Shown here one piece after another: positions 1,198 through 63,679 of a stretch of DNA of 64,000 nucleotides. The notes beneath the pieces are model-generated. The model was not told the DNA's origin, did no database searches, and saw only the letters and a list, made by a program, of their open reading frames with translations. This DNA comes from Escherichia phage 212. Position numbers and translations under genes: made by a program. Numbering within the stretch: position 1 is the stretch's first letter; each line of letters opens with the position of its first letter. The stretch lies in the sequence record PQ765507. One strand, 5' to 3'.

Positions 1198-1263
1198 AAG
1201 GGGTGTACAAGCCCCTTTGAATGATGTATCATTATCCCATCAACTACTGATGAGGAAAACAAA
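1198..1263 (+). promoter_or_regulatory. PeSL-like cassette: hairpin (AAGGGG..CCCCTT) containing GTGTACA -35-like box, -10-like box, conserved leader CATCAACTACTGATGAGGA
   Basis: Sequence read directly; same architecture recurs about 18 times in window. Confidence 0.55.
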
Positions 1264-1446
1264 ATGGTTATTGAAGATAAAGAAATTAAAGTTGACCATT
1301 ATTATTCTGTAAATGGTTATCCTGTACAAGTAACCAAAGTGACTGACCAAGATGTATGGTATCGTCCTTTGAAATGGCCTGATGCTCCGTTGATGGTGTG
1401 TGACCGTAGCTTGTTCAATACAGTTGCAAAAGGACCTAAATTATGA
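1264..1446 (+). CDS. hypothetical small protein
   Basis: ORF directly downstream of PeSL-like cassette with GAGGA RBS. Confidence 0.5.
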   Translation: MVIEDKEIKVDHYYSVNGYPVQVTKVTDQDVWYRPLKWPDAPLMVCDRSLFNTVAKGPKL

Positions 1447-1697
1447 GCCTGAAATTACATTCAATGAAAAATGTCGCCACCCTTAATCTTGATGATGAAC
1501 GTTTGATTTTTATCACCGTCACAGATAAAAATATTGAAATTGCAAATGGTCCTAAGACTTATTGTTGCCCAGTGAAGAATTGGAAACATGTAACCTTTTT
1601 GACCCTGGGTGACCGTCTGAAAGACCTTAAGTTGGATTTAGATGTCAAAGATATTCAGTACATTAAAAAACTTATTGGATACAAACTGCTGAGGTAA
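1443..1697 (+). CDS. hypothetical protein
   Basis: ORF with ATGA overlap to upstream ORF. Confidence 0.45.
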   Translation: MSLKLHSMKNVATLNLDDERLIFITVTDKNIEIANGPKTYCCPVKNWKHVTFLTLGDRLKDLKLDLDVKDIQYIKKLIGYKLLR

Positions 1698-1699
1698 TT

Positions 1700-1993
1700 A
1701 TGGGTAAAACTATTCGTCGCAAAGAATTGTCTGTAAAAGATTTTTATTATTCAGGGCGTCGTCAGGCGCCTGATGGTGTAAGTCAGGAACAAGTTGAAGA
1801 AAATATCTTCCGTTCAGACAAATGGAAGCGTATGCGTGGCGTTGATTCAGAAGTCAAGAATGAGATGAATCGTCAACTGCGTAAAGAAGTTCGTCAGTTG
1901 AAAAAAGATGTATACGTTGAGGATGATTTTGATTATAATACTTCTCACCGTGTTGCAAAACGTAAATCAAACGAGTGCTATCGTTACAGCTGA
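1700..1993 (+). CDS. hypothetical basic protein
   Basis: ORF, Lys/Arg-rich, tightly packed after previous stop. Confidence 0.45.
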   Translation: MGKTIRRKELSVKDFYYSGRRQAPDGVSQEQVEENIFRSDKWKRMRGVDSEVKNEMNRQLRKEVRQLKKDVYVEDDFDYNTSHRVAKRKSNECYRYS

Positions 1994-2133
1994 GGAAAAC
2001 ATGAATATCAAACGAATGCTTTTTAAACAAGGATTATACACTTTAAATTCTGCTCCAAAAGGCGATACAACTAAGTGGTCAGTAAATGACTGGATTAAAT
2101 TTATTGATGAAACCGGTAACTGGAAAATTTAAA

Positions 2134-2331
2134 ATGAATCCTGAATCTAAATTATCACAGCGAATTGCTGAATCCCGTCGTCAGTTCTTTGAAAATATGA
2201 TAGCTCAAGGTATTGATGACGAAGTTTTTCTAAACTGGTTTTGGAATCACAAATATTCAAGTTGCTCGGGTGCTTTGTTAATTTCCGCCGCAATGATGTA
2301 TGAAGGTTGGAAAGGCGCTAAAGCGCAGTAA
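2134..2331 (+). CDS. hypothetical protein
   Basis: Internal ATG of track ORF 2086..2331 directly after upstream stop. Confidence 0.35.
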   Translation: MNPESKLSQRIAESRRQFFENMIAQGIDDEVFLNWFWNHKYSSCSGALLISAAMMYEGWKGAKAQ

Positions 2332-2403
2332 AAACCAACGGGGTCATGGTATAATGACCCCAGGATAATAAAATTTTAATTTAATGAGACTGAGGAATAT
2401 ATC

Positions 2404-2730
2404 ATGACTGCATCTATCACTAACACCATCGCTAATTTCGCATTTGCTAAAGTCAACACTCTGATGAAATCTGGTTTCGTTACCCCTGAGATTCTGGACC
2501 AGTGGGAAGGCGATGTACAGAAGCTGATTATTGCAGAAGGTCAGACAATGGGTAAAGCGCGTATTCGTGAAAGCCTTGTCCAGTATATCCTGAATGAATT
2601 CGATGTAGTAGCGTTTGGTCTGCCGCTTCCACGTGAAAACAAAGAAGTTTCTGACAAAGCTATCAAGCGTATGAATTCCCAGCGCAAGAAAGGTTTTGTT
2701 GACCTGAAAATTATTAAGGGTGCGAAATGA
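2404..2730 (+). CDS. hypothetical protein
   Basis: ORF preceded by palindrome GGGGTCATGGTATAATGACCCC (promoter -10 within hairpin) and GAGGAA RBS. Confidence 0.5.
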   Translation: MTASITNTIANFAFAKVNTLMKSGFVTPEILDQWEGDVQKLIIAEGQTMGKARIRESLVQYILNEFDVVAFGLPLPRENKEVSDKAIKRMNSQRKKGFVDLKIIKGAK

Positions 2731-2990
2731 TGTGTCCTGCTATTGAATTACCTGAAGGTGTTGCGGTAATAGTATCATATAAACATACGTATGCTAATGG
2801 AATTCGCCGAGCTCATAAAATTAGTCAAGGTTACTATTTACAAAGGACTTTAAATTATTTCATTTCAATGGGATATGAATTCAAAATCTATCCTATGTGT
2901 ACTAAAACCAAGTACACTAAAATCGATGCTTGGGAAGCTTGGGCGGAAGGTATGACATTAGACGAATTCCTGGACTACTTAAATGATTAA
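2727..2990 (+). CDS. hypothetical protein
   Basis: ORF, ATGA overlap with upstream gene. Confidence 0.45.
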   Translation: MMCPAIELPEGVAVIVSYKHTYANGIRRAHKISQGYYLQRTLNYFISMGYEFKIYPMCTKTKYTKIDAWEAWAEGMTLDEFLDYLND

Positions 2991-61471: not shown

Positions 61472-61531
61472 AGTATAATTAATACGTAATCAAAACAACT
61501 GCTAAAAATCAAATAATCTAAGGAAAATCAT

Positions 61532-62443
61532 ATGTCTATGTTTAAACGTAAAAACCCAGCTGACCTCGCCGCTTCCCTGAATGCTCTGAAAGGCGGTTCC
61601 GGTTTCTCTTCTGATGACAAAAAAGAATGGAAACTGAAAGATACTGATGGCGTCGGCTCTGCGGTTATTCGTTTCCTGCCTTCTAAGAATGAAGAAAATC
61701 CATCTCCATTCATCAAGCTCGTTAACCACGGCTTTAAAAACGCGGGTCAATGGTATATTGAAAACTGTACTTCTACTCACGGCGATTATGAAAACTGCCC
61801 TGTGTGTGCGTACATGAACAAGAATGACCTGTACAACACAAACGAATCCGAATATCGTAAACTGAAGCGTAATACTTCTTACTGGGCTAACATCCTGGTC
61901 ATTAAAGACCCTGCTGTTCCGTCTAACGAAGGTCAAGTATTCAAATATCGCTTCGGCAAGAAAATCATGGACAAAATTAACCAGATGGTTGAAGTCGATG
62001 TTGACATGGGCGAAACAGCTATTGATGTAACTTGTCCTTTTGAAGGTGCAAACTTTGTACTGAAATCCAAACTGGTTTCCGGTTATAAAAACTACGATGA
62101 TTCCAAATTCATGAACCAGTCTGAAATCGCTGGCATCAATGATGAAGCATTCCAGAAAAAACTTTGGGACGAAATGTCTGACCTGAATGAATTGCTGGTA
62201 TTTAAATCTCTTGAAGAGAATCAGAAGAAATTCTCTAAAGTAATGGGCACAGCTGCTCTCGGTGGTGCTGCTTCTAAAGCTGCTGCACAAGCCGATAAAC
62301 TGGGTGCTGACCTGGACGATTTTGATAAAGATATGGAAGACTTCACTTCCAGCAAACCTGCTAAGTCTGAACGCACTGCGACTGCTCCAAGCACTCCAGA
62401 GCCTTCTGATGATGGTCTTGACGACCTTCTGGCTGGCCTTTAA
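61532..62443 (+). CDS. 32: single-stranded DNA-binding protein gp32
   Basis: 303 aa; recalled match to T4 gp32 (MFKRK..., [35 protein letters not shown], acidic C-terminus LDDLL.GL). Confidence 0.95.
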
Positions 62444-62449
62444 TATAAG

Positions 62450-62553
62450 GGGACCTTCGGGTCCCTTTTTTATTTTCAAAAAGTAGTGTACAAGTCCCTT
62501 GAGCTAAGGCATAATGATTCCATCAACTACTGATAACAACTGAGGAAATAAAA
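62450..62553 (+). promoter_or_regulatory. PeSL-like cassette: terminator GGGACC-TTCG-GGTCCC + T-run, GTGTACAA -35-like, CATAAT -10-like, leader CCATCAACTACTGAT
   Basis: Read directly; near-identical to cassette at 46335..46448. Confidence 0.6.
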
Positions 62554-62916
62554 ATGGAAATCGGCAAAAAATATGAGTTCAATCCACATCGTATTAAATC
62601 TTTCATTGATATTAGTTCATCGAATGCTAGTATGGTCGACATCATCCAAGAAAATGGCGGTTGGTTTGAAGTTAAATCAATATCAAGTGCAGACGGCTAT
62701 GATTATGTAACCGAAATCATTTGTGCTAATGGTGCAATCTATAATGATGATGGTATGGGTGATGATTATTTTGAACTTAGTGAAGAAGAGTTTTATTGCT
62801 TCCGCGAATACTCCAATTATGCAAAAACACCTTCAGGGGCGGTTTCTATTAATTGTGTTGTGGATGCTAATAACGTCGACCAAATCATTGAACTTCTACA
62901 AAAAGCTTTCAAATAA
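62554..62916 (+). CDS. hypothetical protein, tandem paralog A
   Basis: Shares GDDYFELSEEEFYCF / DVDEYFELAEWEFCHF and C-terminal helix with next ORF. Confidence 0.45.
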   Translation: MEIGKKYEFNPHRIKSFIDISSSNASMVDIIQENGGWFEVKSISSADGYDYVTEIICANGAIYNDDGMGDDYFELSEEEFYCFREYSNYAKTPSGAVSINCVVDANNVDQIIELLQKAFK

Positions 62917-62977
62917 CAGTTTACAACAGGTCTATGGTTGAGATATTATAGACCTTCAACTACATGAGGAAAATAAA

Positions 62978-63346
62978 ATGATGGAAACTGGTAAATTTTA
63001 CGTATTAGACCCTGCTGCTAAAAAACAATTCATCGCTGGTAGTCCTGATGATAATTCGTGCATGGTCAAGTTAATGGAACAGCATGGCAATTCCTTCAAA
63101 GTCCTGGATATGTGTTATATTGAAGGTGATTATTTTGTTGAAAAAGTTGAAATGAAAGATGGCACCATCCTGAATAGTATGGGTGATGTTGATGAGTACT
63201 TTGAACTCGCTGAATGGGAATTCTGTCACTTCCTGGAAGTTGATGGTGATGCTCCTGATGTTGATACCCAAACCATTCATGTGCAGGTAAATTATAAAAA
63301 TGCCGCGGAAGTTATTGCCTTGATTAAAGCAACTTTTGAGGTCTAA
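62978..63346 (+). CDS. hypothetical protein, tandem paralog B
   Basis: See paralog A. Confidence 0.45.
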   Translation: MMETGKFYVLDPAAKKQFIAGSPDDNSCMVKLMEQHGNSFKVLDMCYIEGDYFVEKVEMKDGTILNSMGDVDEYFELAEWEFCHFLEVDGDAPDVDTQTIHVQVNYKNAAEVIALIKATFEV

Positions 63347-63347
63347 C

Positions 63348-63602
63348 ATGACTAAAGATGATTTCCTGGATGCCGTAGAAAAAGCAAGCGAACAATTTGA
63401 AGTAATGGGTGTACGAGTTCATAAAGACAGAAATTATGGCCTCGATGTTCAAACATACTCATTATGGCTTGTTGGTGAACACAGTCTTGCAACCAATCTT
63501 GTTATGGGGGTTGATACTCATCCTTTATTAGTTAAGTTCAGAAGTATGGAAAAAGCCACCAAGGAAATGATTAAACTTGGAAAATGGCTTGATAAAATTT
63601 AA
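63348..63602 (+). CDS. hypothetical protein
   Basis: Internal ATG directly after previous stop. Confidence 0.4.
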   Translation: MTKDDFLDAVEKASEQFEVMGVRVHKDRNYGLDVQTYSLWLVGEHSLATNLVMGVDTHPLLVKFRSMEKATKEMIKLGKWLDKI

Positions 63603-63679
63603 AAAGTAGTGTACAACCAAATGGGGCTATGACATAATGGTCCCATACTGAGTTAACAACTAAAACACTGGAGAATAAA

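Follow-up and report, generated by a model that had tools for sequence, protein, structure and literature searches.

A repeated early-promoter cassette of the PeSL kind in the early-gene region of Escherichia phage 212

The early-gene region of Escherichia phage 212 (sequence record PQ765507) carries 18 copies of an oriented transcription cassette, each ending in the Shine–Dalgarno sequence (SD) and start codon of an open reading frame (ORF). The region is described here in a window of 64,000 nucleotides (nt), the whole stretch of DNA that was analysed, with positions counted from its first letter. The repeat belongs to a known kind of element, the promoter-early stem-loop (PeSL) or T4-type early-promoter cassette, in a sequence version particular to the genus; it is a real, well-defined and largely ordinary feature. 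All 18 copies combine an oriented repeat, a sigma70-like promoter pattern and an SD with ATG, and a significant predicted stem-loop accompanies these in 12 of them.

Each copy probably serves to express early genes in the T4 manner, as a cassette of the PeSL kind made up of four functional parts. The promoter, with its UP tract, GTGTACA or GTTTACA, 17-nt spacer and (C/T)ATAAT-like −10, would be a strong host sigma70 promoter that fires immediately after infection and starts at the A following a C-rich −3..−1. The stem would form only in RNA reading through from the upstream gene, and would most likely attenuate or process that RNA and thereby insulate each module. The cassette's own mRNA would start inside or beyond the stem, so that its leader is short, conserved and unstructured. 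An SD of the form GGA(G/U)RAYARAA would allow immediate translation of this mRNA and its subsequent inactivation by the phage nuclease RegB, giving a pulse of expression. Finally, because identical blocks of 17–30 nt recur in every copy, the cassettes may act as occasional points of recombination or conversion at which modules of cassette plus ORF are gained, lost and swapped.

The repeated promoter and the genes behind it

Gaprivervirus T4-like coliphages (PSD2001, DK-13, MN01, UPEC01, VR20 and VR7) match the window at 93–97% identity, and the DNA represents the early-gene region of such a T4-like coliphage (VR7/VR20 group of the genus). The early genes on the + strand run nrdG, 55, 47/46, 45, 44/62, regA, 43, uvsX, 41, dmd, sp, 61, 56, soc, modA/B, srd, dda, dexA, motB, 39, rIIA/B, denB, ndd, 52, motA and asiA; downstream of asiA, tail-fibre genes lie on the − strand, followed by rnh through 32 and the frd region on the + strand.

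A preliminary description of this DNA had proposed a recurring promoter unit, and the counts bear it out. The pattern GTGTACA-N14–20-YATAAT has 10 matches in the window, on the + strand only, versus 0.02 expected. An iterated position-weight matrix (PWM), which covers the UP tract, −35, −10 and 18 nt downstream and allows a variable spacer, finds 18 copies with scores of 26.8–58.6 bits, compared with a best score of 16.8 in 30 shuffled windows, and no copy on the − strand of the window. The promoter core consists of an A-rich UP tract, a GTGTACA or GTTTACA −35, a spacer of 17 nt in 15 of the 18 copies (16 nt in two, 18 nt in one) and a YATAAT-like −10; the 3′ end is an SD and then ATG in all 18. 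Two-thirds of the copies (12/18) are grouped in four clusters, within which neighbouring copies are 309–929 nt apart. The two leader motifs recognised earlier are both confined to one strand of the window, ATCAACTAC with eight occurrences on + and none on −, CATACTGAG with four on + and none on −; the type-1 leader sequence is CCAUACUGAGUUAAC. Rfam covariance models run against the whole window gave no matches at gathering thresholds.

The outer limits first given were correct, the cassettes extending from about 1189 to 63679, and 16 of the 19 sites first named belong to the family. Three do not, 25614 being of MotA type and 2404 and 36800 atypical, while the cassettes at 27169 and 62919 had been overlooked. 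The copies are listed below, and are named in the text by the position of the −35; z is the folding z-score of the region from 8 nt upstream of the −35 through the ATG.

1189..1263, + strand: cassette with −35 GTGTACA at 1203, before a 60-amino-acid (aa) ORF at 1264; PWM 49.8; −35 inside the loop of a GGGG..CCCC stem; leader CCCATCAACTACTGATGAGGA; z = −4.8
15369..15449, + strand: cassette with −35 GTTTACA at 15383, before imm (superinfection immunity; Pfam Imm_superinfect); PWM 37.9; hairpin CGGCAAT-GG-ATTGCCG within the spacer; z = −2.1
19624..19714, + strand: cassette with −35 at 19654, before an 82-aa ORF at 19715; preceded by a terminator-like hairpin after gene 41; SD GGATAATAAAA, an exact match to the RegB consensus
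19949..20042, + strand: cassette with −35 at 19963, before a 100-aa ORF at 20043; PWM 44.6; type-1 leader GATTCCATACTGAGTTACAC
20344..20413, + strand: cassette with −35 at 20358, before a 105-aa ORF at 20414, upstream of dmd; SD GGAGAATAAAA; stem GGGGC-TTACA-GCCCC plus T5, a terminator-like hairpin with the −35 as its loop; z = −3.6
21273..21344, + strand: cassette with −35 at 21287, before spackle (sp), ORF 21345; palindrome GGGATAAT..ATTATCCC around part of the −10
27155..27225, + strand: cassette with −35 at 27169, before an ADP-ribosylase (modA/modB-like) ORF at 27226; PWM 26.8; 15-bp stem in which the −10 region pairs with SD and ATG; z = −4.9
27756..27830, + strand: cassette with −35 at 27770, before ORF 27831 (second ADP-ribosylase); overlap with the 3′ end of the preceding ORF; SD GGATAATAAAA
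28512..28601, + strand: cassette with −35 at 28526, before srd, ORF 28602 (relatives' annotation); variant of the type-1 leader
31875..31949, + strand: cassette with −35 at 31889, before an 85-aa ORF at 31950; CTCATCA-ACTAC-TGATGAG palindrome, a perfect 7 bp, its 5′ arm spanning the predicted +1
32951..33036, + strand: cassette with −35 at 32965, before motB, ORF 33037; GGGGTCA..TGACCCC around the −10; decoy SD GGAGAATAAAT, about 25 nt, then the real SD
42344..42426, + strand: cassette with −35 at 42358, before an 87-aa ORF at 42427; 12-bp stem CAGTATGGAGTC/GATTCCATACTG around the −10; z = −3.8
43030..43098, + strand: cassette with −35 at 43044, before a 36-aa membrane-peptide ORF at 43099; stem ATCTCCAGT.../...ACTGGAGAT around the −10 and over the SD; z = −5.7
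43937..44024, + strand: cassette with −35 at 43951, before ndd, ORF 44025; GGGGTCA..TGACCCC around the −10
46334..46448, + strand: cassette with −35 at 46370, before a 71-aa ORF at 46449, upstream of motA; TTCG terminator at 46334-46351; type-1 leader, SD GGAGAATAAAA
62450..62553, + strand: cassette with −35 at 62486, before an FRD2-family ORF at 62554; PWM 58.6; TTCG terminator at 62450-62465; leader a hybrid of types 1 and 2
62905..62977, + strand: cassette with −35 at 62919, before a second FRD2-family ORF at 62978; PWM 27.6; stem GGTCTAT..ATAGACC around the −10
63595..63679, + strand: cassette with −35 at 63609, before frd.1 (DUF5417), ORF 63680; type-1 leader, SD GGAGAATAAAA; stem ATGGGGC..GGTCCCAT around the −10

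That most of the flanked ORFs are unrecognised was an overstatement. About half are imm, spackle, modA/modB (the two ADP-ribosylases), srd, motB, ndd, frd.1 and frd.2, with two FRD2 paralogues among them; the eight other small ORFs served by cassettes gave no significant family match. Since known early genes are included, the cassettes mark immediate-early host-takeover genes and not orphans alone. The FRD2-family paralogues (120 and 122 aa) stand in tandem at 62554-63346 with one cassette each, and relatives have a further 228-nt ORF between them.

Stems, leaders and Shine–Dalgarno sites

With +1 placed 7 nt after the −10, the two kinds of RNA that could carry a cassette differ in predicted folding. 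The region from −35 to ATG is structured, with a mean z of −2.35 and z below −2 in 12 of the 18 copies, and the predicted own transcripts are nearly unstructured (0 to −1.8 kcal/mol in 16/18). The commonest stem joins the spacer to the bases that directly follow the −10 and so holds the −10 in the loop; less commonly the −35 or the spacer lies inside a hairpin, or a TTCG terminator stands upstream. The earlier observation that some −10 boxes lie within a GGGGTCA..TGACCCC palindrome holds for the elements at 2340, 32965 and 43951.

Several comparisons suggest that the pairing itself is maintained. Spacers pair better with the segment that follows them in the same cassette than with its counterparts in the 17 others (permutation p=1.5e-4; by duplex energy p=2e-4). 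Because the stems stand in different registers relative to the −10 across genera, the orthologous frd.1/DUF5417 promoter was compared by an own-versus-cross permutation test: among eight genera, −10-enclosing stems are present in seven (Gaprivervirus, Gualtarvirus, Dhakavirus, Tequatrovirus, Kagamiyamavirus, Gelderlandvirus and Jiaodavirus), their sequences are entirely different, and own pairing scores 9.4 versus 5.7 for cross pairing (p=1e-4). Among close orthologues, one compensatory change, T.A to C.G, was found in the stem of the motB cassette. In the 23 stems with at least six Watson–Crick pairs, internal non-canonical pairs comprise 12 G.U versus 1 A.C on the sense strand (p=0.003), an excess that argues for read-through RNA of the sense strand rather than duplex DNA. 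Overall, these patterns point to selection on stem pairing at the RNA level.

The same evidence bears on a very remote alternative, namely that the palindromes act in duplex DNA, either as sites at which dimeric regulators shut the early promoters off or as cruciforms to which recombination enzymes are drawn. In its favour, the −10 on which the palindromes are centred is the place for a repressor to act, TGTACA is a palindrome in its own right, and the mechanism by which T4 early promoters are shut off is not fully understood (PMC3014915). However, stem sequences vary between copies and genera with pairing kept, which fits poorly with a single protein site, and the asymmetry between G.U and A.C is not expected of a duplex or cruciform.

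Two readings of the hairpin in translation were not supported as they stood. A leader hairpin overlapping the SD had been suggested as a possible translational control site; in the cassette's own mRNA, however, only 4 bp of the CTCATCA/TGATGAG stem fall within the predicted transcript, with a minimum free energy of −0.6. On a second reading, the stem would be a gate whose 5′ arm lies upstream of +1 and whose 3′ arm lies over the SD, so that read-through RNA is untranslatable and promoter-proximal RNA is open. Such an arrangement is clear at cassette 27169, where a 15-bp stem covers SD and ATG (p=0.005), and is seen at 43044 and 19654 and likewise at T4 denV and regB. For the class as a whole we regard it as distinctly improbable: SD and ATG are unpaired with a probability of 0.57 in read-through RNA and of 0.58 once everything upstream of +1 is shuffled (all cassettes; Fisher combined p=0.32, Wilcoxon p=0.77), and most −10-enclosing stems stop short of the SD. 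Occlusion is individually significant only at 27169, with 19654 and 43044 suggestive, and hairpin-gated translation was rejected as a class property, SD occlusion in read-through RNA being no greater than in the shuffled control.

The SD end of the cassette has a different likeness. The strong cleavage consensus of RegB with S1 is GG*AGRAYARAA, in which the fourth base may be G or U (Uzan & Miller 2010, PMC3014915). Exact matches in the window number seven on the + strand and none on the −, versus 0.56 expected; five of these are the SDs of cassette ORFs 19715, 20414, 27831, 46449 and 63680, and one is the decoy SD in the leader at 2404. Agreement at 10 or more of the 11 positions is found at 8 of 18 cassette starts, and none of the 69 other + strand starts reaches it (p=6e-7). 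The cassettes thus end in an SD that matches a strong RegB/S1-type site and is a predicted target; leaders of this candidate type include GGAGAAUAAAA and GGAUAAUAAAA, in contrast to the GGAA variants. A RegB homologue about 60% identical to T4 RegB is present in Gaprivervirus VR25 and TH54. The idea of an RNase site is therefore plausible in so far as the SD end fits the consensus, although it is the unpaired SD that is concerned and not the hairpin.

Descent, module exchange and sites outside the family

The working parts of the cassette are more constrained than the coding sequence around them. Among orthologous cassettes of five relatives, which also underlie the breakpoint comparisons below, divergence is 0.5% in the −35, 1.5% in the −10, 2.8% in the UP tract, 3.1% in the leader, 3.1% between SD and ATG and 6.7% in the spacer, compared with 5.2% at codon positions 1+2 and 13.3% at third positions. 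By this measure, purifying selection acts on the leader. When this phage is set beside Morganella phage MP1, identity is 43% in the frd.1 proteins, 17 of 17 nt in the UP/−35 block and 24 of 25 nt in the leader. In MP1 (KX078569 60940-61794), two annotated promoters have GTGTACAA and a type-1 leader CCCATACTGAGTTA(A/C)C, and flank homologues of window ORFs 63680 and 46449; cassette and ORF together are therefore common to distant genera.

A broader reading, which we consider rather doubtful, takes the −10 stem and the conserved leader to be more than side effects of promoter strength, and sees in them together an ancient RNA-level insulation device across Straboviridae genera, and joins to it the RegB pulse and a leader-binding factor. 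A read-through stem would stand just upstream of a RegB-optimal SD, and a cut by RegB or another RNase would leave the upstream cistron with a protective 3′ hairpin; expression of the downstream ORF would be limited to a brief pulse, driven by that ORF's own promoter; and the leader, near-invariant between Gaprivervirus and MP1, would be a recognition or binding site for some factor.

Are the copies related by descent? They might instead be independent strong early promoters that are alike because selection drew each of them to one optimum of polymerase and ribosome, with no shared descent and no role in recombination. The functional −35 and −10 boxes are indeed the most conserved positions, and mean pairwise spacer identity is only 0.35. 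We nevertheless think this improbable, as exact blocks of 17–30 nt run through spacers and leaders, which the polymerase does not specify. Twenty-seven cassette pairs share at least 15 nt, compared with at most 10 nt between random segments of the window; the likeness of the copies goes beyond that of similar promoters. An exact match of 30 nt joins cassettes 43951 and 32965. Cassette 46370 is a chimera, identical to 62486 over its 5′ 25 nt and to 19963 and 42358 over its 3′ 27 nt, and its orthologue in PSD2001 has the spacer of paralogue 19963, a conversion patch.

Whole modules of cassette and ORF are also present or absent between relatives, with junctions at the cassette edges. After the stop of gene 41, the window and PSD2001 have cassette A, the 82-aa ORF (ORF82), cassette B, ORF100 and cassette C; MN01 begins directly at cassette B, its breakpoint falling exactly at 19963, and DK-13 and P8 begin at cassette C, so that the module of cassette 19654 is absent from DK-13, P8 and MN01. 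Three relatives have a breakpoint at 21280, in cassette 21287. In relatives, one additional ORF is inserted at the 5′ edge of cassette 27169 (27160-65) and another at cassette 62919, with its junction within the SD (62964-80). Behind cassette 42358, MN01, UPEC01 and P8 have a replacement for the ORF, its junction lying at the ATG (breakpoint 42432). Taken together, 7 of 41 breakpoint clusters lie in cassettes, which make up 4% of the length (p=0.001). Set against the share of gene boundaries that have a cassette, the excess is not significant (7/29 versus 18/113, p=0.17), a result that also suits independent promoters. Modular shuffling, as proposed earlier, is thus seen in clean cases, after gene 41 and at 46370 in PSD2001, and the recombination role of the cassettes is backed by cases and not by enrichment; a claim that cassettes drive shuffling calls for caution, as they are not enriched over other gene boundaries.

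Besides this lack of enrichment, several points weigh against the four-part cassette proposed at the outset. The exact homology shared by copies is only 17–30 nt long. Six of the 18 copies have a weak stem or no significant one, and the −10-enclosing stems are mostly without a U-run and thus are not canonical intrinsic terminators. The position of +1 is taken from the sequence and from knowledge of T4. The RegB consensus is exact in only 5 of the 18 cassette SDs, and several others are GGAA, which is not a known RegB target.

Many other indels between the relatives involve annotated or likely homing-endonuclease genes. Annotated genes of this kind in the relatives are missing from the window at 8426-8472, 24066-24180 and 61441-61452, and they are the main source of gene-content differences outside the cassettes. 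Two segments of the window are absent from the relatives compared. One holds a 265-aa ORF at 11783-12580 (+ strand), between regA and 43, that none of the five relatives has. Its I-TevI-type DNA-binding domain (Pfam PF20987, E=6e-8) suggests that the product is probably a homing endonuclease of the free-standing kind, specific to this phage. After rIIB, the window-specific segment 40485-40978 (+ strand) replaces about 40 nt of the relatives with two overlapping ORFs, one of which has a weak AP2-domain match below the Pfam cut-off; the segment may be a split or decayed endonuclease of the HNH-AP2 type.

Four further promoter sites lie outside the family.

2340..2403, + strand: borderline site before ORF 2404, palindrome GGGGTCA-TGGTATAA-TGACCCC, extended −10 and no −35, below the PWM threshold
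25542..25613, + strand: rejected site before ORF 25614, TTCG terminator, MotA box TTTGCTTTT at 25563, 11 nt, TATAAT
36727..36799, + strand: borderline site before ORF 36800, TTCG terminator, TGTACA (promoter 36753), 17 nt, TAAGAT, without leader motifs
48609..48687, + strand: early-like promoter before asiA, GTGTACA, 17 nt, TACAAT, below the PWM threshold

Site 25614 is excluded because of its MotA box, which, followed by TGGTATAAT, gives the T4 middle-promoter pattern; no MotA box ((a/t)(a/t)TGCTT(t/c)A near −30, with the −10 after 11–13 nt) is found in the 18 cassettes. UPEC01 has a breakpoint at 36745-36834, at borderline site 36800. At site 2404, a decoy SD, GGATAATAAAA at 2363, is followed by a second leader. 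Such SDs without a start codon occur in all three GGGGTCA..TGACCCC elements, the other two being GGAGAATAAAT (33015-33025) and GGAGCACAAAA (44000-44010); the real SD lies 25–35 nt further on, and the decoys look like what is left of the 3′ end of an older cassette. Upstream of cef (33539-33575), a hairpin GATAGGG-TTTTTG-CCCTATC followed by AATGAGGAGAATATTATG resembles a promoterless cassette leader ('half PeSL'), and on the − strand the same hairpin is terminator-like.

The TTCG terminator hairpin, first described as a stereotyped part of the unit, directly precedes only 3 of the 18 copies (19654, 46370 and 62486) and was rejected as an integral part of the cassette. The + strand has seven TTCG-type terminators, each with a promoter immediately downstream: these three cassettes, the early-like promoter 36753, at least two promoters of MotA type and one before gene 43. 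At 5061-5115, 25542-25590 and 34610-34655, a terminator hairpin runs into a middle-promoter pattern in which TTTGCTTTA or TTTGCTTTT is followed after 10–13 nt by a −10-like hexamer (TATAAT at 25542 and 34610, TAAAAT at 5061); the first bases of the MotA box come from the terminator T-run, which parallels the 'PmSL' elements described for nt-1.

Comparison with known early-promoter systems

Gaprivervirus phages are well-sampled coliphages and therapeutic candidates, and they now have a place in the scheme of PeSLs and T4 early promoters; no published analysis of their cassettes was found in the literature searched. The census of immediate-early transcription units helps to annotate small ORFs as host-takeover genes. 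The additions to earlier PeSL descriptions are modest: a co-varying stem embedded in the promoter, apparently selected in sense-strand RNA, and a RegB-type site at the 3′ end, which links the literature on PeSLs with that on RegB, a nuclease not mentioned in the two PeSL papers (PMC2839356, PMC4122927).

By definition, a PeSL has a sigma70-type early promoter together with an AT-rich tract, a stem-loop that may precede the promoter boxes, lie between them or overlap them, and an SD with ATG at its 3′ end (PMC2839356, PMC4122927). They were defined for RB49/phi1 (Arbiol 2010, PMC2839356), where PeSL-like sequences of JS98 are mentioned in passing, and extended to T4/PST and nt-1/KVP40 (Comeau 2014, PMC4122927). 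The likeness pointed out in the preliminary description is sound, as the composite fits both definitions. In either case the elements are repeated intergenic composites of about 70–110 nt with a 17-nt promoter spacer, clustered before small ORFs in plastic regions and linked to some indels between close relatives. They differ in the −35, which is GTGTACA here, TTGACA in RB49 and TTTACW in T4/PST, and the leaders CCATACTGAGTTAC and ATCAACTACTGAKGAGG are distinctive of the present cassettes. For RB49 PeSLs, promoter and terminator activity and mini-circles have been shown, and attenuation has been demonstrated for a single RB49 stem (Arbiol et al., PMC2839356). By BLAST, the 67-nt type-1 unit is found in 37 records, at 6–10 places in each; apart from one weak match in phage fDHCT2 and weak matches in Morganella phage MP1, the records are Gaprivervirus-type genomes. 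The type-2 leader has weaker matches in Tequatrovirus and Klebsiella T4-likes.

The T4-like early promoter has GTTTAC at −36..−31 and a C-rich −3..−1 (Nolan 2006, PMC1524935), and the combination of UP, −35, TGn and −10 has been called an 'uber' promoter design (Hinton 2010, PMC2988021). The cassettes show the T4-type −35, UP tract, TAnnnT −10 and C-rich −3..−1, with the GTGTAC variant predominating. Layout, spacing, the C-rich segment and the leader CTATCAACTAC(T/A)G are thus common to both, although most of the present copies have G for T at the third −35 position. Upstream of T4 denV, trna.4, e.8, ipI, ipII, ipIII, e.7 and regB there are GTTTAC promoters, −10-enclosing inverted repeats and GGAGAATAAA-type SDs, and an inverted repeat was already annotated beside the T4 regB promoter in record X04567 from the 1980s. 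The type-1 leader CATACTGAG does not occur in the 18 kb of T4 sequence examined.

In T4 e, soc, 49 and I-TevI, a late promoter lies inside a hairpin, and the SD of longer transcripts is sequestered. Copies 27169, 43044 and 19654 are built likewise, in that their predicted own transcripts lack the SD-sequestering 5′ arm; the internal promoter is late in T4 and early here, and the arrangement is not general among the cassettes. Lastly, the cassette SDs GGAGAATAAAA and GGAUAAUAAAA match the T4 RegB/S1 consensus at 11 of 11 positions, and the cassette SDs are placed where RegB acts, in early-gene leaders that are predicted to be unstructured.

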